This document shows, piece by piece, positions 45,772 to 63,263 of a DNA stretch of 64,000 nucleotides; the stretch's first letter is position 1; each line of letters opens with the position of its first letter. A program made the position numbers and the translations under genes. The DNA is from an uncultured Fidelibacterota bacterium. Lineage in GTDB: Bacteria > Fidelibacterota > Marinisomatia > Marinisomatales > Marinisomataceae. The stretch lies in NCBI GenBank assembly GCA_902538565.1, contig CACBFQ010000001.1, positions 195,451-259,450 on the forward strand, read 5' to 3'. The notes below the pieces were generated by a model, which saw only the letters and a list, made by a program, of their open reading frames with translations, was not told the origin of the DNA and made no database searches.

Positions 45772-45843
45772 TACCCCAGGAAGGACTCGAACCTACAACC
45801 AATGGCTTAAGAGGCCACTGCTCTACCATTGAGCTACTGAGGC
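45772..45843 (-). tRNA. tRNA-Lys(CTT), CCA not encoded
   Basis: GCCTCAGTAGCTCAATGGTAGAGCA-GTGGC-CTCTTAA-GCCAT-TGGTT-GTAGGTTCGAGTCCTTC-CTGGGGTA. Confidence 0.9.
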
Positions 45844-53117: not shown

Positions 53118-53173
53118 GAGGATTTAATTTAAAAAAAAATGGCTTATAAGATTGCCTCTAAATAATTTATTTG

Positions 53174-53983
53174 ATGCCATCAATATCTGTTATCATATCA
53201 ACATATAATAAGCCTCATTTTTTAGAAAAAGTGCTTACTGGATACTGTTTTCAAACTTTTAAAGATTTTGAAATCATTATTGCAGATGATGGGTCTTCAA
53301 ATGAAACTAAAGAAATGATTGCAAAATTTGAGCAATTAATTCCCCAAAAAATTTATCATGTTTGGCATGAAGATAATGGGTTTAGAAAATGTAAAATATT
53401 AAATGCTGCAATAGTGAAATCATCAAATGATTATTTAGTTTTTTCAGATGGTGATTGTATTCCTGATTCTCACTTTTTAGAAACACACTCTAGATTGGCT
53501 CAAAAAGATTATTTTCTTTCTGGTGGTCATTTTCCTATTACAGAAACAGTATCTAATTTATTAACAATAGAAGATATCAAATCTCAAATCTGCTTTACCA
53601 AAAAGTATCTTTTAAAACAAGGTCAACCAATCGGAAAAAACTATTTTAAGCTAATTAAAAATCAATTTTTAGCAGATGTTTTAGATCGATTGACTCCAAC
53701 TAGAGCAACTTTTAATGGCAATAATTCATCTGCTTGGAAATCTGATATTATCAAAGCAAATGGATTTGATGAACGAATGGAATATGGAGGTCTTGATTGT
53801 GAGCTTGGGTATAGATTAAATAATAATGGCATCAAATCTCTTCAAGTAAGAAATAGAACTACTGTACTTCATCTTTATCATATAAGACCTTATAAAAATA
53901 AAGATGCAATTAAAAAAAATAGACTAATAAGAAAATCAACAATAGAAACTAAGATTACTAAAACTGATTTTGGAATTAATTAA
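53174..53983 (+). CDS. GT2 glycosyltransferase
   Basis: SVIISTYN, ADDGS, DGDC and NGFDE. Confidence 0.9.
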   Translation: MPSISVIISTYNKPHFLEKVLTGYCFQTFKDFEIIIADDGSSNETKEMIAKFEQLIPQKIYHVWHEDNGFRKCKILNAAIVKSSNDYLVFSDGDCIPDSHFLETHSRLAQKDYFLSGGHFPITETVSNLLTIEDIKSQICFTKKYLLKQGQPIGKNYFKLIKNQFLADVLDRLTPTRATFNGNNSSAWKSDIIKANGFDERMEYGGLDCELGYRLNNNGIKSLQVRNRTTVLHLYHIRPYKNKDAIKKNRLIRKSTIETKITKTDFGIN

Positions 53984-54975
53984 TGCAAAATCTTAAAAGT
54001 TCAAACGCTAAAAGACAAAAACTTTTATATTATCTCTACTATACTCCTTTGGTATATTTTTTTCCGAGCATTATTTCCAGACTTAGGCAAAAAAATATAT
54101 TAAATAATAGCTTTCAAGGAGAATATATTCAATCTAGAGTAAGATATTATTTTAAAAAAACCTCAAACTTTAGAGTTTCAAATAAAGGAAAAAAATTATC
54201 TGAACTATTTTGGAATCAATTTTTTAAAAATAAACAGCATTCACATTTTATAGATTTTTACTTGTTGTTACAGTTTTTTAATAAGAATAATAAAGTCGAC
54301 TTTATCTATTCAACAAAAGATTATATTGATAGTGCCATTGCTAAGAAACATCATCGATATCCAACATTTGTTAAATCAAGACCTATTGGTTCTGATAACC
54401 AAAATTCTATTTTACTAAAGTTAAATCAAGTAAAACTTTTTCATTTTATCAAAGATCCTAAAAAATTTGTAAATAAGAAAAATCTAGCTGTATGGAGAGG
54501 AGATATTAGAAATAATGCTATTCGGAAATATTTTGTTAAAAATTTTTATAAGTCTCCCTTATTAGATATAGGACAAACTAAACCTAATGAAAATGTACCA
54601 TGGATGAAAAGTTTTATGTCGATAAAAGATCAACTTGACTACAAATTTATTTTCTGTCTTGAAGGAAAATGTATTTCAACAAATCTTTTTTGGGCGATGA
54701 GCTCAAACTCAGTTTGTGTTATGCCTGAACCAAAATATGAGAGCTGGTTTATGGAGGGAAAGCTGAAAGATGGAGTACATTATATAAAAGTTAAAGATGA
54801 TTTTTCGGATGCAGAGGAAAAAATCAAATTTTATATAAATGAAAATGATAAGTGTCTTGAAATCATCGATAATGCACAAAAATTTGTTAGACAATTTAAA
54901 AACGCAAAACAAGAGAGATTAATTCAGCTTTTGATATTAAAGCAGTATTTTCAATCCACGGGACAATATGAATAA
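53983..54975 (+). CDS. GT90/CAP10 (LpsA-like) glycosyltransferase
   Basis: KSRPI, VWRG, YKFIFCLEG and WFMEG.L...HYI. Confidence 0.82.
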   Translation: MQNLKSSNAKRQKLLYYLYYTPLVYFFPSIISRLRQKNILNNSFQGEYIQSRVRYYFKKTSNFRVSNKGKKLSELFWNQFFKNKQHSHFIDFYLLLQFFNKNNKVDFIYSTKDYIDSAIAKKHHRYPTFVKSRPIGSDNQNSILLKLNQVKLFHFIKDPKKFVNKKNLAVWRGDIRNNAIRKYFVKNFYKSPLLDIGQTKPNENVPWMKSFMSIKDQLDYKFIFCLEGKCISTNLFWAMSSNSVCVMPEPKYESWFMEGKLKDGVHYIKVKDDFSDAEEKIKFYINENDKCLEIIDNAQKFVRQFKNAKQERLIQLLILKQYFQSTGQYE

Positions 54976-55978
54976 GAAGCTAAAGATATTGAAATATAAA
55001 AATATTAAATTTTTTTATTACCTAAGACATGTTATAGCAGCACTAGTACCTAAAATATTTTATCGTTTACGGTTGAAATCAGAGCTAAAAAAGATAAAAT
55101 ACTATGATAAAGAGTATATTTTTTCGCGATTGAATTACTATCATAAAAGAGACGATGAATTTAAAGTTTCAGAAAATTCCATGACAAATAAAAACTTGCT
55201 CCATCGACAGATAAGCAAAATTAATGAAAATATAATTAAAAAAAATAAGGAGGTTGTAAAGCATACTACTTATTTTTTTGATTTGTATAAACTGTTCTCT
55301 TACTTCGATAATAAAAAAAAGTTAGATTTTTTTTTTGGTGACATTACAAAAGCGCAAACAATCCCAACCATTGTAAAAAGTAGGCCAATTATAGATAGTG
55401 ACGATTCTATAATATTAAACTTAAATAAAATTCGACATTTTAATTTTATCAATGATGATAAAAAATTTATTGATAAAAAAAATAAGGCAGTATGGCGAGG
55501 CGACGGAGAAAACTCTAAAGCTAGACAATACTTTTTAAAAAATTATCACCACATATCAATATTTAACATCGGTCAAACAGTTCCAATATTAGATGCACCT
55601 TGGGTTAAAAAGTTTATGCCTATTTCCGAACAACTGCATTATAAATTTATATTTTGTATTGAGGGAATTGATACAGCAACAAGCATAAAATGGGTAATGT
55701 CTTCAAATTCTGTATGTGTCATGCCAAAACCAAAATATGAAACATGGTTTATGGAAGGCACTCTTAAGCCTGATGTGCATTACATTGAAATAAATGATGA
55801 CTTCTCTAACGCTGAACAAAAAATTAAATACTTTATCGAGCATCCAAATAAAGTATTAAAGATTATTGAAAATGCAAAGGCACATGTAGAGCAATTCAAA
55901 AATGTTAAAAGAGAAAAATTAATTTCATTGATGGTATTAGATAAATATTTCTTTTTATCCGGGCAAAAGAATGAATGA
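54968..55978 (+). CDS. GT90/CAP10 (LpsA-like) glycosyltransferase, paralog
   Basis: KSRPI, RHF, VWRG, YKFIFCIEG.D.A and WFMEG. Confidence 0.84.
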   Translation: MNKKLKILKYKNIKFFYYLRHVIAALVPKIFYRLRLKSELKKIKYYDKEYIFSRLNYYHKRDDEFKVSENSMTNKNLLHRQISKINENIIKKNKEVVKHTTYFFDLYKLFSYFDNKKKLDFFFGDITKAQTIPTIVKSRPIIDSDDSIILNLNKIRHFNFINDDKKFIDKKNKAVWRGDGENSKARQYFLKNYHHISIFNIGQTVPILDAPWVKKFMPISEQLHYKFIFCIEGIDTATSIKWVMSSNSVCVMPKPKYETWFMEGTLKPDVHYIEINDDFSNAEQKIKYFIEHPNKVLKIIENAKAHVEQFKNVKREKLISLMVLDKYFFLSGQKNE

Positions 55979-57053
55979 TAAAAATATATGTATTCTTTTT
56001 GACGTACAAGAACTTTACTATTTACCACAATATCTTCCTGTATATCATGAATTTTTAAATCGTAATAAAGGTAATGCTCTTTTTGTATTTTATTATGGCA
56101 AATTTGATACAATAATAAAGAGTATTATAAAATCAGAGAAATTGAATCATGTCTGGGTTGAAAATAAATCTGAGGCAAATAATTATTATAAAAAAGAAAA
56201 AGCTGATTGGATATTTTTTGGAAATAAATTTCCATATCTTGATGAAGTTCACAAAGTAAGTAAAACAATTCAGCTTGGGCATGGTGTTGGCCCAAAATCA
56301 AGTTATTATACGAAGTCTGATACTCCAACTACGGTGAGATTTGTTGAAGGAGAATATAGAACAAATCGCCTAAAAAGCATGTATCCTGATAATAATTTTG
56401 TTGATGTTGGATTTGCTAAACTTGACCCTATTTTTAATGGAAATGCACCTAAATTTGATTTAGAAAGCCTTGGGTTAGATTCGTTTAAGAAGACTCTACT
56501 CTATGCCCCCACTTTTTATCCCAGCAGCATTGAAAGATTTCCAAAAAAATTTCCTGAAGACTTTAAGGATTTCAATATAATGATTAAACCTCATTATTTT
56601 TCATTAAGCCAAGAGAAATACAAAAAACAACGTCAGCTTCTTGAATATTGGTCAGAATATGATAATGTTTATTTAGCAAAAGTTACAGACTATTCAATCG
56701 TTCCTTTTTTAGCAACAGCTGATCTACTTATGAGCGATGCTTCATCAGCAATTATTGAATTTGCTGCTTTAGATAAACCGGTTATATGGTGTAATTTTCT
56801 ACAACTACGCTGGAATTACAAAGGAATTTTTGCTTATCGTTTCAAGAATCGTATGGATAAAGATTATGATGAATATTCTAAAATAGCTGTTCAATCTGAT
56901 TCATATAAAGAATTAAAACATAATATCAAAGAACAGATATTAAATCCTACCTCTCTTTCTGAAATACGACTACAGTACGCAAATAAATTAGCTGGATTGT
57001 TGGATGGAAAATCAAGTCAAAGAATAATAGATTATTTATTAAAAAATTACTAG
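55971..57053 (+). CDS. CDP-glycerol glycerophosphotransferase (TagF-like) family protein
   Basis: QLGHG, GFAKLD, LYAPT, KPH, SDASS..EF and DGKSS.R. Confidence 0.82.
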   Translation: MNDKNICILFDVQELYYLPQYLPVYHEFLNRNKGNALFVFYYGKFDTIIKSIIKSEKLNHVWVENKSEANNYYKKEKADWIFFGNKFPYLDEVHKVSKTIQLGHGVGPKSSYYTKSDTPTTVRFVEGEYRTNRLKSMYPDNNFVDVGFAKLDPIFNGNAPKFDLESLGLDSFKKTLLYAPTFYPSSIERFPKKFPEDFKDFNIMIKPHYFSLSQEKYKKQRQLLEYWSEYDNVYLAKVTDYSIVPFLATADLLMSDASSAIIEFAALDKPVIWCNFLQLRWNYKGIFAYRFKNRMDKDYDEYSKIAVQSDSYKELKHNIKEQILNPTSLSEIRLQYANKLAGLLDGKSSQRIIDYLLKNY

Positions 57054-57094
57054 TATATCTTTGGTAAGTATTTTAAGTAGCACAATAGGAGAAA

Positions 57095-57508
57095 ATGAAA
57101 AAAATTGGGTATACTTCAGGAGTATATGACCTATTTCATATTGGTCATCTAAATATTCTTAAAAGGGCAAAATTAGAGTGTGATCATCTAATAGTAGGTG
57201 TAAGTACTGATGAACTATGTGAATCAGCTAAGAATCAAAAACCTTTCATACCATTTCAAGAACGAATGGATTTAGTTGGGTCGGTAAAATATGTTGATGA
57301 AGTAGTTCCTCAAACTAACTATGATAAAATGGAAGCTTGGAATAATTTAAAATTTGATAAAATGTTTGTTGGAGATGATTGGAAAGGCACTGATCAATGG
57401 AATCAAATTGAAAAAGAATTTTTTCAATATGGAGTTGAAATAATCTATTTTCCTTACACCACTCATACCTCAAGCACTGTTCTTAGAAAAATACTTTCGA
57501 AAAGCTAA
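57095..57508 (+). CDS. tagD: Glycerol-3-phosphate cytidylyltransferase
   Basis: YDLFHIGH, GVSTDE, VGDDW and SST; AGGAG RBS. Confidence 0.85.
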   Translation: MKKIGYTSGVYDLFHIGHLNILKRAKLECDHLIVGVSTDELCESAKNQKPFIPFQERMDLVGSVKYVDEVVPQTNYDKMEAWNNLKFDKMFVGDDWKGTDQWNQIEKEFFQYGVEIIYFPYTTHTSSTVLRKILSKS

Positions 57509-57547
57509 TTACTTTCAAACATTTTCATAACAATACTAAATTAAAAT
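57505..57547 (+). promoter_or_regulatory. 11-bp-period direct repeats (Pho-box-like) plus -10 box
   Basis: CTAATT-N5-CAAACA-N5-ATAACA, then 9 nt, TAAAAT, 5 nt, ATG. Confidence 0.4.
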
Positions 57548-57552
57548 GTTAA

Positions 57553-58587
57553 ATGAATATTTTATATGGTATCTCAGCTACTGGTAATGGTCATATTTCT
57601 AGATCAAGAATTCTCATATCTGCGTTAAAAAAAAGAGGACATAATATTACAGTACTTTTTAGTGGTAGAGATATAAAAGATCTATTTGATACAAAAGAAT
57701 TTGAACCTTTCATTGCCAGAGAAGGATTTACTTTCAAAATCAAAAATGGAAAGGTTCAATATTTTAGTACTTTATTAAATACAAATATATATAATTTTTT
57801 TTACGATATTTTTAAAATAAACAATGATTATGATGTTGTAGTAACTGATTTTGAACCTATATCAGCTTTTGCGGCTAAAAAATTCAATATTCCATGTATT
57901 GGCGTTGGTCACCAGTACTCTTTCAATACTAATATACCCATGACGATAAAAATGAAATTTTTTAGTTTATTTTTTCCAAAATTTTTTACCCCAGTTGATA
58001 AATCAATTGCATCACATTTCTATCATTTTAACCAACCAATCTTACCACCGTTTATTGATGAAAAATTGCAGAACAGCAATAATGCTAAACAGAAAAAGGA
58101 TGTTATTTTGGTTTACTTGCCTTGGGAAAGGCAAGATAAAATGCTAGATATTTGTTCAAAAATTAAAAGTAAAAAATTTATTTACTATACAAACATCGAT
58201 GAAGAACTTGAAGTCAATAATGTTTTACTAAAACCCTTTTCAAACGTCAATTTTAAAAAGGATTTAATTGAATCAGAAGGTGTCATAACCAATGCAGGAT
58301 TTCAGTTACCTTCAGAATGTATTTTTTTAGGGAAAAAATTATTATGTAAACCACTTCTAGGGCAACCAGAGCAGGAGCATAATGCTAAAATTCTGTCAGA
58401 TTTAAAATTAGCTACCACATGTAATAACTTAACTACTTCAACAATTAATGATTGGATTAAAAATAGTTCTAGTAGAAGAATTCAATATAAAAATCCTGTT
58501 GATTTAATGATTAAAATTATTGAAAACCCTGAGATTGATTTTTCAAATGAAATTATTGATATTTGGGGTACAAATGATAATTTATAA
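57553..58587 (+). CDS. MJ1255/VC2487-family GT-B glycosyltransferase
   Basis: TGNGHISRS, TDFEP, VGHQY, LPP, NAGF..SE and GQPEQ..NA. Confidence 0.85.
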   Translation: MNILYGISATGNGHISRSRILISALKKRGHNITVLFSGRDIKDLFDTKEFEPFIAREGFTFKIKNGKVQYFSTLLNTNIYNFFYDIFKINNDYDVVVTDFEPISAFAAKKFNIPCIGVGHQYSFNTNIPMTIKMKFFSLFFPKFFTPVDKSIASHFYHFNQPILPPFIDEKLQNSNNAKQKKDVILVYLPWERQDKMLDICSKIKSKKFIYYTNIDEELEVNNVLLKPFSNVNFKKDLIESEGVITNAGFQLPSECIFLGKKLLCKPLLGQPEQEHNAKILSDLKLATTCNNLTTSTINDWIKNSSSRRIQYKNPVDLMIKIIENPEIDFSNEIIDIWGTNDNL

Positions 58588-59407
58588 TACCTTTCCCCAC
58601 GCTGAACTAGATCATGAAAAATATGAAATAGAAAAAAGACGTCTTCAAGTTGAATTATTAAAACTTCAAGAATGGGTTATAAATAAAAATAAAAAAATAG
58701 CAATTATTTTTGAAGGTAGGGACGCTGCTGGTAAGGGCTCTACTATAAAACGATTCATTGAACATTTGATTCCTAAAAATGCCAAGGTAATTGAGCTTGG
58801 TATTCCAACAGAAAAACAAAATAAACGGTGGTTTAAGACTTATGAAAAACTTTTACCTAAAAAAGGAAAAATTCATTTCTTTGATAGATCATGGTATTCA
58901 AGAGCTTTAATACAACCAGCGATGGGTTATTGCAATGAAAAGCAATACAAATACTTTATGAAAAAAGTAAATGAATGGGAAGAAAAACAAGTCCAAAATG
59001 GATTAATTTTAATAAAATTTTATCTTTCAATTTCTAAAGACAGTCAAAGTTTAAGATTTAAAATAAGGCAATCTCATAAACTAAAATATTGGAAGTTTTC
59101 AAATAACGACCTCATTGCTATGAGTAAATGGGATATTTTTTCACAATTTAAAAATCAAATGTTTCATCATACTTCTACAGCAGCCAATCCATGGGTAGTA
59201 ATCAATGCTAACAATAAAATGATTGGCAGGCTTAATGCAATGAGATATGTTTTATCTTCAATTCATTATGATAATAAAAAGGAGCTTAAACCTAAAAAAT
59301 GGTCTAAGGATTCTTACAAAAATAGTATTACATTTCATGGTGTCACATTCAAAAATCTTACAAAAGAACAATATGACTTATTATACAGAATCCAATCCAA
59401 CACCTAA
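58574..59407 (+). CDS. ppk2: Polyphosphate kinase 2
   Basis: FEGRDAAGKG, FDRSWY, KF..S and WK.S..D; start set at MIIYN. Confidence 0.92.
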   Translation: MIIYNTFPHAELDHEKYEIEKRRLQVELLKLQEWVINKNKKIAIIFEGRDAAGKGSTIKRFIEHLIPKNAKVIELGIPTEKQNKRWFKTYEKLLPKKGKIHFFDRSWYSRALIQPAMGYCNEKQYKYFMKKVNEWEEKQVQNGLILIKFYLSISKDSQSLRFKIRQSHKLKYWKFSNNDLIAMSKWDIFSQFKNQMFHHTSTAANPWVVINANNKMIGRLNAMRYVLSSIHYDNKKELKPKKWSKDSYKNSITFHGVTFKNLTKEQYDLLYRIQSNT

Positions 59408-59855
59408 GTTTGATACTGCTGGAGGCATTGTTCTTTGCAATAAAAAATTGTTGTTTATCTATAAAAGAGGAATATGGGACTTACCAAAAGGCAAAATTGA
59501 ATTAAATCATACCACAGAATCAACAGCTGTTCGAGAAATTTCAGAAGAAACTGGTCTTAAAGAAACTGATTTAACTGTCATAAATAAACTTCCAAAAACA
59601 AAATACTATAAAAAGGTTAACGGTGAAGCTTTTTTAAAAAAAAATTATTGGTTTATCATCAATTATACTGGAGACCCTTTAACGACTTTAGTTCCTGACC
59701 AGAGCGAGGGTATAACAGAATGTAAGTGGGTAGAGCTTAATAATTTGGATTCTATCATTACAAATACTCATGCAAGAATAAGTTATTTAATTGACTATTT
59801 TTTAAATGATCCAGATTTTGAGAACTATTTGAACGGCTCAGTATTAAACAACTGA
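59373..59855 (+). CDS. Nudix hydrolase
   Basis: AGGIV, WDLPKGK and AVREISEETGL; start set at MTYY. Confidence 0.88.
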   Translation: MTYYTESNPTPKFDTAGGIVLCNKKLLFIYKRGIWDLPKGKIELNHTTESTAVREISEETGLKETDLTVINKLPKTKYYKKVNGEAFLKKNYWFIINYTGDPLTTLVPDQSEGITECKWVELNNLDSIITNTHARISYLIDYFLNDPDFENYLNGSVLNN

Positions 59856-60085
59856 ACAAGATCTTCAAATCCGCCAATAGGTAAATCATTAATTAAAATT
59901 TGAGGTACTGTTGGCCCCTTAGTAATCGAAGCCATCTGTTCGCGTGACATATCGTTCTCTTCAATGTCAATCTCAGTGAAACTATAACCTTTTTCAGATA
60001 ATAGTCTTTTTGCCATTTTACAAGGCCCACACCAGGACGTGGTATAAATTTTAATTGAAGTGTTTTTTGGAGTCCTTTTTTCCAT
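59825..60085 (-). CDS. Glutaredoxin 3-like protein
   Basis: WCGPC, TVPQI and IGGF. Confidence 0.88.
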   Translation of the reverse strand: MEKRTPKNTSIKIYTTSWCGPCKMAKRLLSEKGYSFTEIDIEENDMSREQMASITKGPTVPQILINDLPIGGFEDLVQLFNTEPFK

Positions 60086-60113
60086 GCGCAAATATAGTAT
60101 TTTTTTCTAAAAA

Positions 60114-60157
60114 CAAACAAGTTTCTAACATAATACTAATTTTTAAGTGCTTAATTT
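60114..60157 (+). promoter_or_regulatory. 11-bp-period direct repeats (Pho-box-like) plus -10 box
   Basis: CAAACA-N5-CTAACA-N5-CTAATT, then 10 nt, TAATTT, ATG. Confidence 0.4.
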
Positions 60158-60158
60158 T

Positions 60159-60929
60159 ATGATGTCAAAATATAAATCTATTTTTATTTCAGACATTCAT
60201 TTAGGTTCACGGGGTTCAAAAGCAAAACTATTATATAAATTTTTAGATTATATAGAAGATGATGTAGGTACTGATAATTTATTTATTGTTGGAGACTTAA
60301 TTGATATTTGGGCATTAAAAAGAAAATGGAAATTTCCGAAGTCTCATTCTAATATTGTTAGGAAGTTACTGGGAATGGCCAAACGAGGCATTCATGTCAC
60401 TTACTTACCTGGAAATCATGATGAAACATTTAAAGAGTTCTCTGGCAATAAATTTGGGAAAATAAAAATTAAAAACTTCTGCACCTATAAATCTGTAAAT
60501 AAAAAAAGATATTATGTATGTCATGGTGATGAATTTGATATCTTTATGACTCCAAAATTTAGCTGGATATCTCATTTAGGCGGAGGTGTATATGAAAGAA
60601 TTTTATGGATGAATCAAATCCTTAATTGGTGGAGGAAAAAAACTGGTGGTAAATATTGGTCGCTATCAAAATATGTCAAAAGAAAAGCTAAAATAGCATC
60701 AAATGTCATTTCAAAATATGAAAATGCTTTAATTAATTCTGGAGAAAAAAAAGGATATGATGGAGTAATTTGTGGACATATTCATCATGCTGAGGATAAA
60801 ATAATTAATGACTTTCATTACTTAAATTGTGGAGACTGGGTTGATAGCTGCACTGCATTAGGAGAGGATTTTGATGGAAACTGGCATATTATTGATTGGG
60901 GTCACAAAATTTTTAAAAATAAACTTTAA
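60159..60929 (+). CDS. Metallophosphoesterase of the PlcP/LpxH2 type (probable phospholipase C)
   Basis: SDIHLG, GDLID.W, GNHDE, HGDEFD, YWSLS, CGHIH and GDWV.S.TA. Confidence 0.8.
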   Translation: MMSKYKSIFISDIHLGSRGSKAKLLYKFLDYIEDDVGTDNLFIVGDLIDIWALKRKWKFPKSHSNIVRKLLGMAKRGIHVTYLPGNHDETFKEFSGNKFGKIKIKNFCTYKSVNKKRYYVCHGDEFDIFMTPKFSWISHLGGGVYERILWMNQILNWWRKKTGGKYWSLSKYVKRKAKIASNVISKYENALINSGEKKGYDGVICGHIHHAEDKIINDFHYLNCGDWVDSCTALGEDFDGNWHIIDWGHKIFKNKL

Positions 60930-61060: not shown

Positions 61061-61291
61061 ATGGAAATTATAACTAACTTTGCAGAAGCTCTTCAAGCAA
61101 ATCCAGCGTTGCTCGTTGGTATATCACTTTGGGAAGCTCTATTTACTTTATTGGCTTTGTGGTTTGCTGCAAGAAACGATCATAAGGGTTGGTTCCTATT
61201 ATGTGGTCTTGTCCAACTATTTGGATTAGTAGAAATATTCTATCTTGCGACAAAAACAAACTTTTTTAAAGACTTCAAATTAAATGGGTAA
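61061..61291 (+). CDS. Small membrane protein (DUF5652-like)
   Basis: ALW.AARN..K.WF...G..EI.Y pattern; purine-rich RBS. Confidence 0.7.
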   Translation: MEIITNFAEALQANPALLVGISLWEALFTLLALWFAARNDHKGWFLLCGLVQLFGLVEIFYLATKTNFFKDFKLNG

Positions 61292-61487
61292 ACATTTTCC
61301 AACAATCATTGCTTCAATAATGCTTATTGCCATGCTTGGATTAATGAGCAATTGTCAAGTAAATACAGATGTTCCACTTGAGTATCAAAGCCCAATGGAA
61401 ACAAGTGAACATCTTGATGAAAATGGCGAAGAAATGAAAAAAAGAATCGTCAATTGGGAATTCCAAAGAGATAAACAAGATCCTTGA
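61284..61487 (+). CDS. Small putative lipoprotein
   Basis: Hydrophobic N-terminus followed by SNC; overlaps both neighbours. Confidence 0.55.
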   Translation: MGKHFPTIIASIMLIAMLGLMSNCQVNTDVPLEYQSPMETSEHLDENGEEMKKRIVNWEFQRDKQDP

Positions 61488-62401
61488 AAAAAATTTTATC
61501 TTTCTGCATAGCTACGCTATGTCTCTACTTTGCATTTAATCAAGTAAATATAGAAGATATTTATCGTGCTTTATCTAATGCAAATTTGATTTATATCTTT
61601 GTTGCATTTATTACAACTTTTGTAACATTCATTCTCAGATCGTTAAGATGGAAGATTTTATTAGATTCACCAAAAGATCTTGAATTACAGAAATATATTT
61701 CAACAACTCATATTGGATATTTTTTAAATAACATACTTCCATTTAGAGCTGGGGATTTGGCTAGAGCAAAACTATTATCTAGCAACACAACTAATATAAG
61801 GTTTAGCTTTCTTGTTGGAAGCTTGGTAGCCGAAAAAATTATTGACTTATGGATTGTTGGATTATTTAGCATTTTCTTAATTCTTTTTGGATTTAATAAT
61901 GTCCTAGTATTAGAATTCTCCATTGGAATTTTACTATTATACATAATTACCTCATTCATCATTTTTGGTAATAACTCCCTCGCTAATAAAATGCAAAAAC
62001 AATTTTCGATTACTAAAAATTTTATTGATGGATATTTATTAGTGTCCAAAAATAAAATTAAACTTGGCGGTATTTCCATTCTGCTATGGTGCTCATTTGT
62101 GGCTTATATGTATACATTATTGAGGTCTGTTAATATTGATTTATCTTTTCAACAATATATTGGAATTACGGTTATTACTAGCATTGTAACCTCATTACCA
62201 ATAGCTCCTGCTGCAATTGGAACATATCATTTAGCTGTTATTTACTTTCTTAATCTATATGGAATAGAAATTGATCAGTCGCAGACAGCTGCAATCCTAT
62301 TACATTCTGTATTTCTATTGTATACTATTATTTTAGGATATATTTATTTATCTTTTGAAAAAATTGAATTGAAATCACTTATCAATGACGATAAAAACTA
62401 A
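61484..62401 (+). CDS. LPG_synthase_TM / flippase-like membrane protein
   Basis: RSLRW, NNILPFRAGD, EKIID and P.APAAIGTY. Confidence 0.82.
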   Translation: MKKILSFCIATLCLYFAFNQVNIEDIYRALSNANLIYIFVAFITTFVTFILRSLRWKILLDSPKDLELQKYISTTHIGYFLNNILPFRAGDLARAKLLSSNTTNIRFSFLVGSLVAEKIIDLWIVGLFSIFLILFGFNNVLVLEFSIGILLLYIITSFIIFGNNSLANKMQKQFSITKNFIDGYLLVSKNKIKLGGISILLWCSFVAYMYTLLRSVNIDLSFQQYIGITVITSIVTSLPIAPAAIGTYHLAVIYFLNLYGIEIDQSQTAAILLHSVFLLYTIILGYIYLSFEKIELKSLINDDKN

Positions 62402-63263
62402 AGGTCTTTTAACGGTTCTAACTGCATATGTTATTGCAGTAATTCTAGGTTTTATATCTTTAAAATTTTCTTCCAATTTGTCATCAATGATGCAAATTCT
62501 AATAGCTGATATTGTTGCAACATTTGTTATTTACTCATTTAGTGTATACCATAAAAATTCATCTTTTTATGATCCATACTGGTCTGTCATTCCTCCATTC
62601 ATTGCATTCTTTTGGTTTGCTAAAAATAATTATATGATTAATACTCCCTCTTTAATTCTTATGGTAGCTGTTCTCTTTTGGTCGCTGAGGCTGACTTACA
62701 ACTGGATGAAAACTTGGGATGGATTACACCATGAAGATTGGAGATATATTGACATGAGAAATAATCTCGGAAATTCATTTGAGATCATAGGCAATCTTGG
62801 CGGAATTCATTTCTTTCCTACTTTCATTGTTTTCTTCTGCTGCATGCCTATGGCCCAAAATTTTTCACAAAGCTATAATTGGACAATTTTTCTAGGTTTT
62901 GGATTATGTATAATTGGCGTACTACTAGAAATCATAAGTGATAAACAGCTGCATTCTTTTCGAAAAATTCATCCTAGTGGAACTGGTATTATTGAAACAG
63001 GGCTATGGAACTATTCTAGACATCCTAACTACTACGGTGAAATTATGTTTTGGTGGGGAATCTTTGTTTTTGGATATTCTTTTACAGGCCTGAACTATTT
63101 GTTGTTAGCCCCAATAGCTATGACAGCAATGTTTTGGTATGCTAGTATTCCATGGATTGAAATTAAAATATTAAGAACTAGACCTCAGTATAAAGATTAT
63201 CAAAAAAGAGTTCATATTTTATTCCCAGAAATCACTATATTTAAGCGCTTATTTAAAGGATAA
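62385..63263 (+). CDS. DUF1295 (steroid 5-alpha-reductase-like) membrane protein
   Basis: NSSFYDPYWS, EDWRY, SDKQL and GLW.YSRHPNYYGE. Confidence 0.88.
   Translation: MTIKTKGLLTVLTAYVIAVILGFISLKFSSNLSSMMQILIADIVATFVIYSFSVYHKNSSFYDPYWSVIPPFIAFFWFAKNNYMINTPSLILMVAVLFWSLRLTYNWMKTWDGLHHEDWRYIDMRNNLGNSFEIIGNLGGIHFFPTFIVFFCCMPMAQNFSQSYNWTIFLGFGLCIIGVLLEIISDKQLHSFRKIHPSGTGIIETGLWNYSRHPNYYGEIMFWWGIFVFGYSFTGLNYLLLAPIAMTAMFWYASIPWIEIKILRTRPQYKDYQKRVHILFPEITIFKRLFKG

Follow-up and report, generated by a model that had tools for sequence, protein, structure and literature searches.

Five genes at positions 57553-60929 of the window, by which we mean the whole 64,000-nucleotide stretch analysed here (contig CACBFQ010000001.1 of assembly GCA_902538565.1, positions 195,451 to 259,450), probably form a phosphorus-sparing membrane-lipid renovation module of an uncultured bacterium of the phylum Marinimicrobia (Fidelibacterota). 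They follow each other in the order GT-PPK2-Nudix-Grx-PlcP, where GT stands for a glycosyltransferase of the MJ1255/VC2487 family, PPK2 for a polyphosphate-dependent nucleotide kinase, Grx for glutaredoxin and PlcP for a metallophosphoesterase. An earlier, sequence-only reading had named the GT, PPK2, Nudix and phosphoesterase genes at this place, and Pfam and NCBIfam matches bear it out for all four. It had overlooked the antisense glutaredoxin gene between the Nudix and phosphoesterase genes, and the four genes do not form one operon.

In the proposed pathway, PlcP would cut the phospho-head group off glycerophospholipids and thereby give diacylglycerol (DAG), as expected from its orthology. 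The GT would then use a nucleotide sugar to glycosylate DAG, yielding a phosphorus-free glycolipid; gene neighbourhood, one protein fusion and the predicted fold point to this step, in which the GT would fill the role played by the GT4 enzyme Agt in the known pathway. Because the fold is nearest to that of inverting GT1/GT28 enzymes, the product is predicted to be a β-glycosyl-DAG, as opposed to the α-linked lipids made by Agt. PPK2 and the Nudix hydrolase, encoded in overlapping frames behind the GT gene, are probably co-expressed phosphate-economy functions. PPK2 would use or make polyphosphate and, more speculatively, may re-phosphorylate the nucleoside diphosphate released by the GT.

Glycosylation by the GT of the DAG that PlcP releases had been suggested by the sequence-only reading, and the comparison of operons, of a fusion protein and of viral gene pairs supports this suggestion. 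Several comparative lines likewise support the GT as a replacement of Agt. Mobilisation of stored phosphate by PPK2 and the Nudix hydrolase is plausible, its basis being a neighbourhood that recurs in other genomes of the phylum (GT-PPK2-Nudix in G394, PPK2-GT in G371).

Assignment of the phosphoesterase to the PlcP type

The phosphoesterase matches PF00149 (E 2.1e-13), and the motifs of calcineurin-like metallophosphoesterases (DxH, GD, GNH[DE], H, GHxH) are intact. In a 20-sequence alignment of its relatives (A1), the metal-binding residues D16, H18, D50, N90, H91, H126, H211 and H213 fall into invariant columns, and all residues that are invariant in the family are kept. The same alignment shows GNHDE (residues 89-93), YWSLS (170-174) and GDWVDSCTA (229-237) to be invariant or nearly so; the pattern GNHDE, YWSLS, GDWV.S.TA from which the phosphoesterase had initially been recognised is thus real and conserved.

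Full-length identity to relatives amounts to 40-53%. The best database relatives (42-53%) with named sources come from Alphaproteobacteria, Malaciobacter and one Marinimicrobia metagenome-assembled genome (MAG), and the 90% cluster of the window enzyme has 183 members. Homologues linked to Agt or BtaA in Pelagibacteraceae, Bradyrhizobium and Roseobacter-group bacteria are 40-45% identical to it. Eighty PlcP loci were collected from species-representative genomes, mostly of Alphaproteobacteria including Pelagibacteraceae, Bradyrhizobium, Methylobacterium and Caulobacter. At the 48 loci where the downstream neighbour could be placed, this gene encodes an Agt-like GT4 enzyme in 31 cases and DUF3419 (BtaA) in eight; PhoX and a patatin occur once each, other families twice and proteins of no family five times. 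A patatin-like phospholipase gene is located 3' of the PlcP gene in an Arcobacteraceae MAG (L034 6734-7492), and a 31%-identical patatin homologue is encoded on contig 2 of the host genome (G000:C2:112019-112762).

In a tree of 106 rows (quick IQ-TREE run with SH-aLRT support only), the window enzyme belongs to a 97-row clade together with the proteins that have Agt or BtaA neighbours (SH-aLRT 97), whereas E. coli LpxH and a Marinimicrobia LpxH-like clade (support 97) stand apart on long branches. The tree of PlcP and LpxH proteins that had been put forward as a check therefore speaks for PlcP. With the LpxH models TIGR01854 and NF003743 the enzyme scores 37.5 and 46.2 bits, respectively, against cut-offs of 190.35 and 134 bits, and the comparison with solved LpxH proteins gave one weak match, to the Haemophilus influenzae enzyme (5k8k, 26.2 bits). 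The host genome G000 (969,495 bp in five contigs, 96% complete) carries a second LpxH-like gene at G000:C2:344983-345711, which belongs to the Marinimicrobia LpxH-like clade, scores 77.9 bits with TIGR01854 and matches nine distinct PDB LpxH sequences over its own full length. Of 41 relatives, 40 carry this paralog, at an identity that declines smoothly from 100% to 33%, while the window enzyme is found in five of the same 41 (G000, G007, G011 and G013 at 98%; G038 at 40%). The window gene is hence not the only one of LpxH type in its genome, a circumstance on which the initial PlcP assignment had depended, and the gene on contig 2 is the better LpxH candidate. LpxB and LpxC are encoded in the host genome as well; LpxI was not found there, and LpxG was not searched. 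Because the scores lie below the cut-offs, the clade is a separate one, the distribution is that of an accessory gene and contig 2 encodes a better LpxH candidate, the classification of the phosphoesterase as PlcP-type and not LpxH appears well supported.

An operational definition of PlcP in PMC6852614 is a TBLASTN match at E <= 1e-40 against PlcP of Phaeobacter sp. As a proxy for this query, a BtaA-linked homologue from Roseobacteraceae (Parasulfitobacter) is 45% identical to the window PlcP at E 8e-72, a value that is relative to the candidate stretches only. Neither agt nor btaA adjoins the window gene; such adjacency is the usual context of plcP and not a strict definition.

PlcP-like genes were also detected in four GenBank phage records. 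One of them is that of the cultured pelagiphage Mosig (Pelagibacter phage Mosig, MT647606.1, 94129-94851), whose PlcP-type protein carries the annotation of a putative UDP-2,3-diacylglucosamine hydrolase and is 41.7% identical to the window enzyme. A GT of the MJ1255 type was not found in GenBank phages at E <= 1e-10.

Family and fold of the glycosyltransferase

The GT scores 196.2 bits with TIGR00661, barely above the cut-off of 195.9. Among the Pfam domains it matches PF13528 alone (E 1.5e-39); the GT4 domains PF13439 and PF00534 are not matched, which sets the protein apart from Agt. Its AlphaFold2 (AF2) model (pLDDT 94.7) has a GT-B fold with structural matches at Z 17-23. The best of these are inverting GT1 enzymes with lipophilic acceptors, namely YojK (Z 23.4), YjiC (22.1) and sterol glucosyltransferase (22.0); further matches are MurG (20.8), the retaining GT4 enzyme PimA (17.9) and MGD1 (17.2). 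The modelled fold would fit a lipid acceptor and an inverting mechanism, a shared fold not being sufficient to fix the acceptor.

P0281, a protein of 758 amino acids that ranks in the top 150 representatives of the GT family, consists of an MJ1255-type GT fused to a PlcP-like domain with the motifs GNHDE and GDWVDSCT. This domain aligns with the window enzyme over the full length (25% identity, E 7e-21). Two proteins with longer, fused forms of the GT were considered as further PlcP fusions and rejected, both being combinations of a P-loop domain with PF13528 that contain no phosphoesterase. Marinimicrobia is the source name on relatives of both the GT (P0208, P0219) and the phosphoesterase (P0033), consistent with the host phylum.

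Our literature search, which lay largely outside subscription journals, found no functional paper on TIGR00661, PF13528, MJ1255 or VC2487 but incidental mentions only, one of which terms VC2487 a putative glycosyltransferase. The glycolipid synthase of D. alaskensis G20 was considered as a fusion of a GT with a phosphoesterase, wrongly so: according to PMC5193443, Dde_3613 is an Agt homologue and Dde_3661 is OlsF, and the MJ1255 family therefore gains no experimental backing from this organism.

Partners of the GT in Marinimicrobia and on IMG/VR contigs

Of 401 Marinimicrobia genomes surveyed, 17 gave a PlcP-type gene with the A1 profile (E <= 1e-30) and 74 a TIGR00661-type GT (E <= 1e-25). 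Four of the 17 PlcP genomes (G364, G391, G243, G375) have an Agt-like GT4 gene 3' of plcP. The remaining 13 all have a TIGR00661-type match, which is the co-occurrence that the sequence-only reading had put up for testing, and in 11 of them the GT gene is near plcP (0 to 1.6 kb); among these 13 genomes G007 is cut at contig ends, and the gene order in G045 comes from a DNA match. All seven PlcP genomes of genus g86 have plcP followed by the gene for a GT of 375-381 amino acids that is 41-44% identical to the window GT, with an overlap of 8-14 nt between the two genes. The two g86 GTs tested score 195.4 and 209.6 bits with TIGR00661. One plcP-GT pair of this genus adjoins a porin-pstS-pstC-pstA-pstB-phoU cluster (L123), and another has an alkaline phosphatase gene upstream (L127). 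In family f24, the GT is present in exactly those seven of 26 genomes that have PlcP. The order in G038 is plcP-PAP2-GT, with a GT that is split over two contig ends sharing an exact overlap of 99 nt. A different arrangement was seen in G375 (L134, G375:C15, 1330-4753), where plcP, the gene of the Agt-like GT4, an OlsB-like gene (PF13444) and an acyltransferase gene stand in a row and make up a combined glycolipid and ornithine-lipid operon.

Twenty GT loci without PlcP were chosen across the families of the phylum from the 74 GT genomes. At nine of them, a PAP2 gene overlaps the start of the GT gene by 4 nt; PAP2 enzymes include phosphatidate phosphatases. PhoU is encoded at most two genes away from the GT at three loci, a Na/Pi cotransporter is found at two and two-component genes at two. 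Genome G394 shows the order PAP2-GT-PPK2-Nudix, and G371 the order PPK2-GT-GT4 with a divergent gene for Ppx. Within the phylum, the GT family appears to be older than the cassette described below, and its usual operon partner appears to be PAP2, another DAG-producing enzyme. PlcP and PAP2 are unrelated enzymes, and diacylglycerol is the one product that both can give.

Among 48 IMG/VR contigs with a GT (L158-L205), detected by means of the GT alignment, 42 have PlcP within 5 kb. In 36 of these 42 pairs the two genes are on the same strand and at most 60 nt apart, the GT gene being first in 23 and the PlcP gene first in 13. Six loci have no PlcP; in two of them the contig stops at the GT, and in three all GTs are distant ones. 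Many of the contigs are 100-476 kb long.

Transfer of the five genes as a block

At the DNA level, 31 genomes of the window's genus were surveyed, and three modules, GT, PPK2-Nudix and PlcP, proved to vary independently at this site. The GT without PlcP, PPK2 and Nudix is found in G005, G006, G009, G014, G019 and G021, for example, and PPK2-Nudix without the other two modules in G004 and G016. In PlcP-less members of the genus the GT takes a form of 339 amino acids. All three modules are present in G000, G011, G045 and G013, with G007 being fragmentary. PPK2 of G016 is 74% identical to that of the window, and a Nudix gene follows the PPK2 gene in G016 and G394 as well.

G013 belongs to a distantly related species, the identity to G000 being 53-77% for the flanking proteins and 54% for the LpxH-like protein. 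By contrast, the cassette proteins of the two genomes are 98.5% (GT), 99.6% (PPK2), 97.5% (Nudix), 98.9% (Grx) and 98.4% (PlcP) identical. On its 3' side, the cassette of G013 is followed by a truncated native GT gene (residues 206-338, 54% identical) and a native Grx gene (64%); these two are located at 11962-12360 and 13451-13693 of locus L101 (G013:C1:685001-703000). Because the cassette is 97.5-99.6% identical against 53-77% for the flanks, and because a remnant of a native GT gene and a native Grx gene lie behind the block, all five genes must have entered G013 together. The right-hand junction of the cassette in G013 looks illegitimate.

Based on these comparisons, GT-PPK2-Nudix-Grx-PlcP behaves as an accessory cassette that is passed between species of the genus. 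Glutaredoxin is matched at the site in genomes of the genus that have no PlcP, PPK2 or Nudix, and two copies are present in G013; it is a resident gene of the site which travels in the cassette, probably as a passenger. From the record of the GT family and the transfer as a block we infer that GT and PlcP are coupled in the window's genome.

Layout of the locus and its genome

Coordinates of the cassette genes and of the cluster upstream are listed in Table 1.

Table 1. Genes and other features of the locus (window coordinates).
Feature	Position	Strand	Family match or remark
Upstream surface-glycan cluster: GT2, two GT90, TagF-like, TagD-like cytidylyltransferase	53171..57508	+	Pfam and NCBIfam
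MJ1255/VC2487-family GT-B glycosyltransferase (GT), 344 amino acids	57553..58587	+	TIGR00661, PF13528
Single-domain PPK2 (polyphosphate-dependent nucleotide kinase)	open reading frame 58520..59407	+	PF03976
Nudix hydrolase	open reading frame 59247..59855, likely start 59373	+	PF00293
Glutaredoxin (grx)	59825..60091	-	PF00462, E 1.9e-18
Divergent grx/plcP intergenic region, about 67 bp, A+T-rich	60092..60158		presumed plcP promoter
PlcP-type metallophosphoesterase	60159..60929; open reading frame opens at GTG 60147, likely ATG 60159/60162	+	PF00149

The genes of the GT, PPK2 and Nudix hydrolase are successive overlapping frames. The PPK2 gene likely starts at an ATG at 58547 or 58574, either of which makes it overlap the GT stop, and the likely Nudix start overlaps the end of the PPK2 gene. 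PPK2 matches PF03976 with an E value of 4.7e-72; its TIGR03707 score of 281.1 bits is below the cut-off of 301.8, and the equivalog assignment of that model does not extend to it. The Nudix hydrolase matches PF00293 (E 3.8e-15), and none of the NCBIfam models reached its cut-off with this protein.

Genes at 61061-63263, 3' of the cassette, are lipid-flavoured as well; they encode DUF5652, a stand-alone MprF-like flippase domain (PF03706/TIGR00374) and DUF1295. They are kept in G006, G013 and G016 despite the differing cassette content of these genomes. Elsewhere in the window, a complete rRNA operon (5S, 23S, 16S) is located at 566-5727 on the minus strand, with two tRNA genes in the spacer (3914-4070, minus strand). 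The GC content rises to 41-45% at the window start because of this operon. A further tRNA gene is located at 45772-45843 (minus strand).

The absence of Agt and BtaBA from the window, pointed out already in the sequence-only reading, holds for the whole 969,495-bp genome: BtaA gave no tblastn match at E <= 1e-2, and the three GT4 genes of the genome are all part of polysaccharide clusters and 23-30% identical to Agt-like proteins. MGDG_synth (PF06925), PAP2, DgkA, PPK1 and PPX were not found in the genome; the soluble DagK family PF00781 was not searched. PstS, PstC, PstA, PhoA, PhoX and OlsB gave no match in tblastn searches with one Marinimicrobia or alphaproteobacterial query each. The genome does encode a PhoB/PhoR-like pair as well as PhoU. 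On this evidence, it would have a single recognisable DAG source (PlcP), a single candidate sink (the GT) and a single polyphosphate enzyme (PPK2).

In each of 14 DNA-type sequencing runs, half or more of the words of the stretch were found. All five genes have partial matches of at least 95% identity among contigs from seawater RNA libraries (four libraries, four studies); this lends weak support to transcription of the cassette genes, DNA carry-over being possible and a ranking of expression being beyond these data.

Alternative explanations

Several observations weigh against a lipid-renovation module. The GT and PlcP genes are separated by 1.6 kb with the opposite-strand grx gene in between and are not organized in an operon. 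In the window's genus, the GT is present in 25 of 36 genomes, PlcP in four of 36 and PAP2 above its cut-off in none of 38. Most GT copies of the genus are therefore not accompanied by a recognised DAG supplier, and the GT-PlcP pairing is not obligate there. The closest relatives of the window PlcP are never located beside a GT of the MJ1255 type (0 of 80 genome loci, 0 of 80 IMG/VR loci), so the window PlcP was probably acquired alone and joined a resident GT; at these 80 IMG/VR loci, the partner is an Agt-like GT4 in 32 cases, and 48 have no partner within 4 kb. The PlcP-GT links of genus g86 and G038 go back to a common PlcP ancestry and do not count as independent, which leaves about three lineages and the viral set as independent, and the contigs behind the 42 IMG/VR pairs may include cellular DNA. 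Since the searches for PstS, PstC, PstA, PhoA and PhoX gave no match, there is no evident sign of a classical Pho regulon. Finally, the GT gene stands right behind the TagD/TagF/GT90 cluster in a hypervariable stretch of low GC content, a placement that would suit a glycan-decorating GT equally well.

Based on the latter point, the GT might belong to the upstream surface-glycan cluster and decorate a glycan or a glycerol-phosphate polymer, with PlcP being a real phospholipase that merely came to lie in the same hypervariable island and acts independently of the GT. We regard this as unlikely. The GT as a mere part of the glycan cluster was the initial reading of the locus and was downgraded after the survey of the phylum. 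The GT gene starts 45 nt 3' of the cluster end, on the same strand as the TagD-like gene, and the arrangement TagF-TagD-GT-Grx recurs without PlcP, PPK2 and Nudix in all six GT-only genomes named above; however, G004 and G016 keep TagF-TagD without the GT, which is thus not integral to the cluster. The region is indeed hypervariable. G006, a close relative whose flanks are 95-100% identical to those of G000, has a TagF-like protein of 58.5% and a GT of 57% identity, and one GT90 (L102) as compared with two in the window. Yet the GT came into G013 along with PlcP and is 98.5% identical there, while TagF and TagD of G013 reach only 85-91% identity to those of G000. Likewise, the lack of PAP2 from the genus and of MJ1255-type GTs from all 160 loci of the closest PlcP relatives has to be set against the operon partners of the GT throughout the phylum, which are DAG-producing enzymes (PAP2 at nine of 20 loci, PlcP in eight genomes) and phosphate genes rather than glycan genes, against the GT that is fused to a PlcP-like domain, and against the pairing of PlcP with the GT at 42 of 48 viral loci.

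A second alternative would make PlcP on its own a phosphate scavenger that frees phospho-head groups for the recovery of inorganic phosphate (Pi), while DAG is degraded or stored and PPK2 and the Nudix hydrolase are unrelated neighbours. Such a role would be in line with the 48 of 80 IMG/VR loci of the closest PlcP relatives at which GT, Agt, BtaA and PAP2 are all missing within 4 kb, and with the Arcobacteraceae relative in which a patatin lipase takes the place of the GT, given that a patatin homologue is encoded in the host genome, too. It is difficult to reconcile, though, with the ties of the GT family to PlcP elsewhere and with the transfer of the five genes as a block. Moreover, DgkA for the recycling of DAG was not found in the host genome, and free DAG is said to disturb membranes (PMC13691135). 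We consider scavenging by PlcP alone to be improbable.

In a third alternative, the phosphoesterase would serve lipid A synthesis as another UDP-2,3-diacylglucosamine diphosphatase (LpxH), as the NCBI and JGI annotations of its relatives and the weak matches to LpxH models and 5k8k might suggest. This is hardly credible in view of scores far below both LpxH cut-offs, the better candidate on contig 2 in 40 of 41 relatives, the rarity of the window gene in the phylum (17 of 401 genomes), the separation from LpxH in the tree, and the Agt or BtaA genes that adjoin its relatives.

A renovation of membrane lipids by PlcP and the GT may have a counterpart well beyond this locus. With chances that we judge to be even, the MJ1255/VC2487 family (TIGR00661/PF13528) would constitute a second, inverting class of DAG glycosyltransferases that replaces Agt in PlcP- or PAP2-driven, phosphorus-sparing renovation in Marinimicrobia (SAR406), other bacteria and many large phages; in the streamlined genus studied here it would travel as a GT-PPK2-Nudix-Grx-PlcP cassette, with PPK2 perhaps recharging the nucleotide of the GT with polyphosphate. 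If members of this family do the job of Agt, a widespread family that has no described function gains one. Surveys that count agt or btaA would then miss lipid renovation in an abundant oceanic phylum and in many phages, and a new class of glycolipids, probably β-linked, would be expected in the sea. The cassette itself would represent a set of phosphate-economy genes that is exchanged en bloc between species of a streamlined lineage with genomes of about 1 Mb.

Comparison with known systems

Among the main responses of ocean bacteria to scarce phosphate is the exchange of phospholipids for lipids that contain no phosphorus; the known route needs Agt or BtaAB. Examples of PlcP-Agt systems are SMc00171 of S. 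meliloti, Agt of Agrobacterium and the system of SAR11 strain HTCC7211. Other PlcP-Agt(-DagK) examples (PMC4796936, PMC8528852 and PMC13691135) are PA3219/PA3218/PA0842 of P. aeruginosa, BCAL2364-2366 of B. cenocepacia and the pair of Phaeobacter sp. MED193. The plcP-agt(-dagK) operons make the lipids MGDG and GADG under Pi stress (PMC13691135 and PMC8528852). According to PMC6852614, plcP abundance drops with rising Pi in the ocean, and plcP serves as a marker gene of phosphate stress there and in PMC4796936. A search for literature on the pairing of MJ1255-type GTs with PlcP, on lipid remodelling in Marinimicrobia/SAR406 and on phage PlcP, again largely outside subscription journals, found nothing on the pairing; the one paper that names both PlcP and Marinimicrobia ties the phylum to C-P lyase and not to PlcP.

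LpxH shares with the window enzyme the calcineurin-like superfamily, the metal-binding motifs and the annotation given to the relatives. The window enzyme differs from it by its separate clade, by scores below both model cut-offs, by its accessory nature and by the presence of another LpxH-like gene in the same genome.

In the betaine lipid route via PlcP and BtaAB, DAG is likewise supplied by PlcP, and eight of the 48 PlcP relatives with a placed neighbour have BtaA (DUF3419) downstream. The difference is that BtaA was not found in the window's genome.

In another known route, a PAP2 phosphatase acts upstream of MGDG synthase, a GT28 enzyme (MGD1 of Arabidopsis, PDB 4x1t). Here, too, a DAG-producing phosphatase feeds a lipid glycosyltransferase of the GT-B fold, and the PAP2-GT operon is the commonest context of the GT family in Marinimicrobia (nine of 20 loci). 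However, PAP2 is absent from the window's genus at the cut-off used, the GT is not a PF06925/GT28 member by sequence, and MGD1 (Z 17.2) is not its best fold match.

Closest to the locus described here is the PlcP-Agt pathway. Both have a first enzyme of the same family, and both would follow the same logic, proposed here for the window, of converting phospholipid via DAG to glycosyl-DAG under phosphate stress. They differ in the arrangement of the genes, as the GT and PlcP genes of the window are not adjacent but have the PPK2 and Nudix genes between them, and as there is no dagK at the locus. They differ further in the second enzyme, which in the window is a TIGR00661/PF13528 GT-B protein and not a GT4, with a fold nearest to inverting GT1/GT28 enzymes and a different anomer to be expected. 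As judged from these comparisons, the locus would represent a variant of the PlcP-Agt pathway with a non-GT4 glycosyltransferase.

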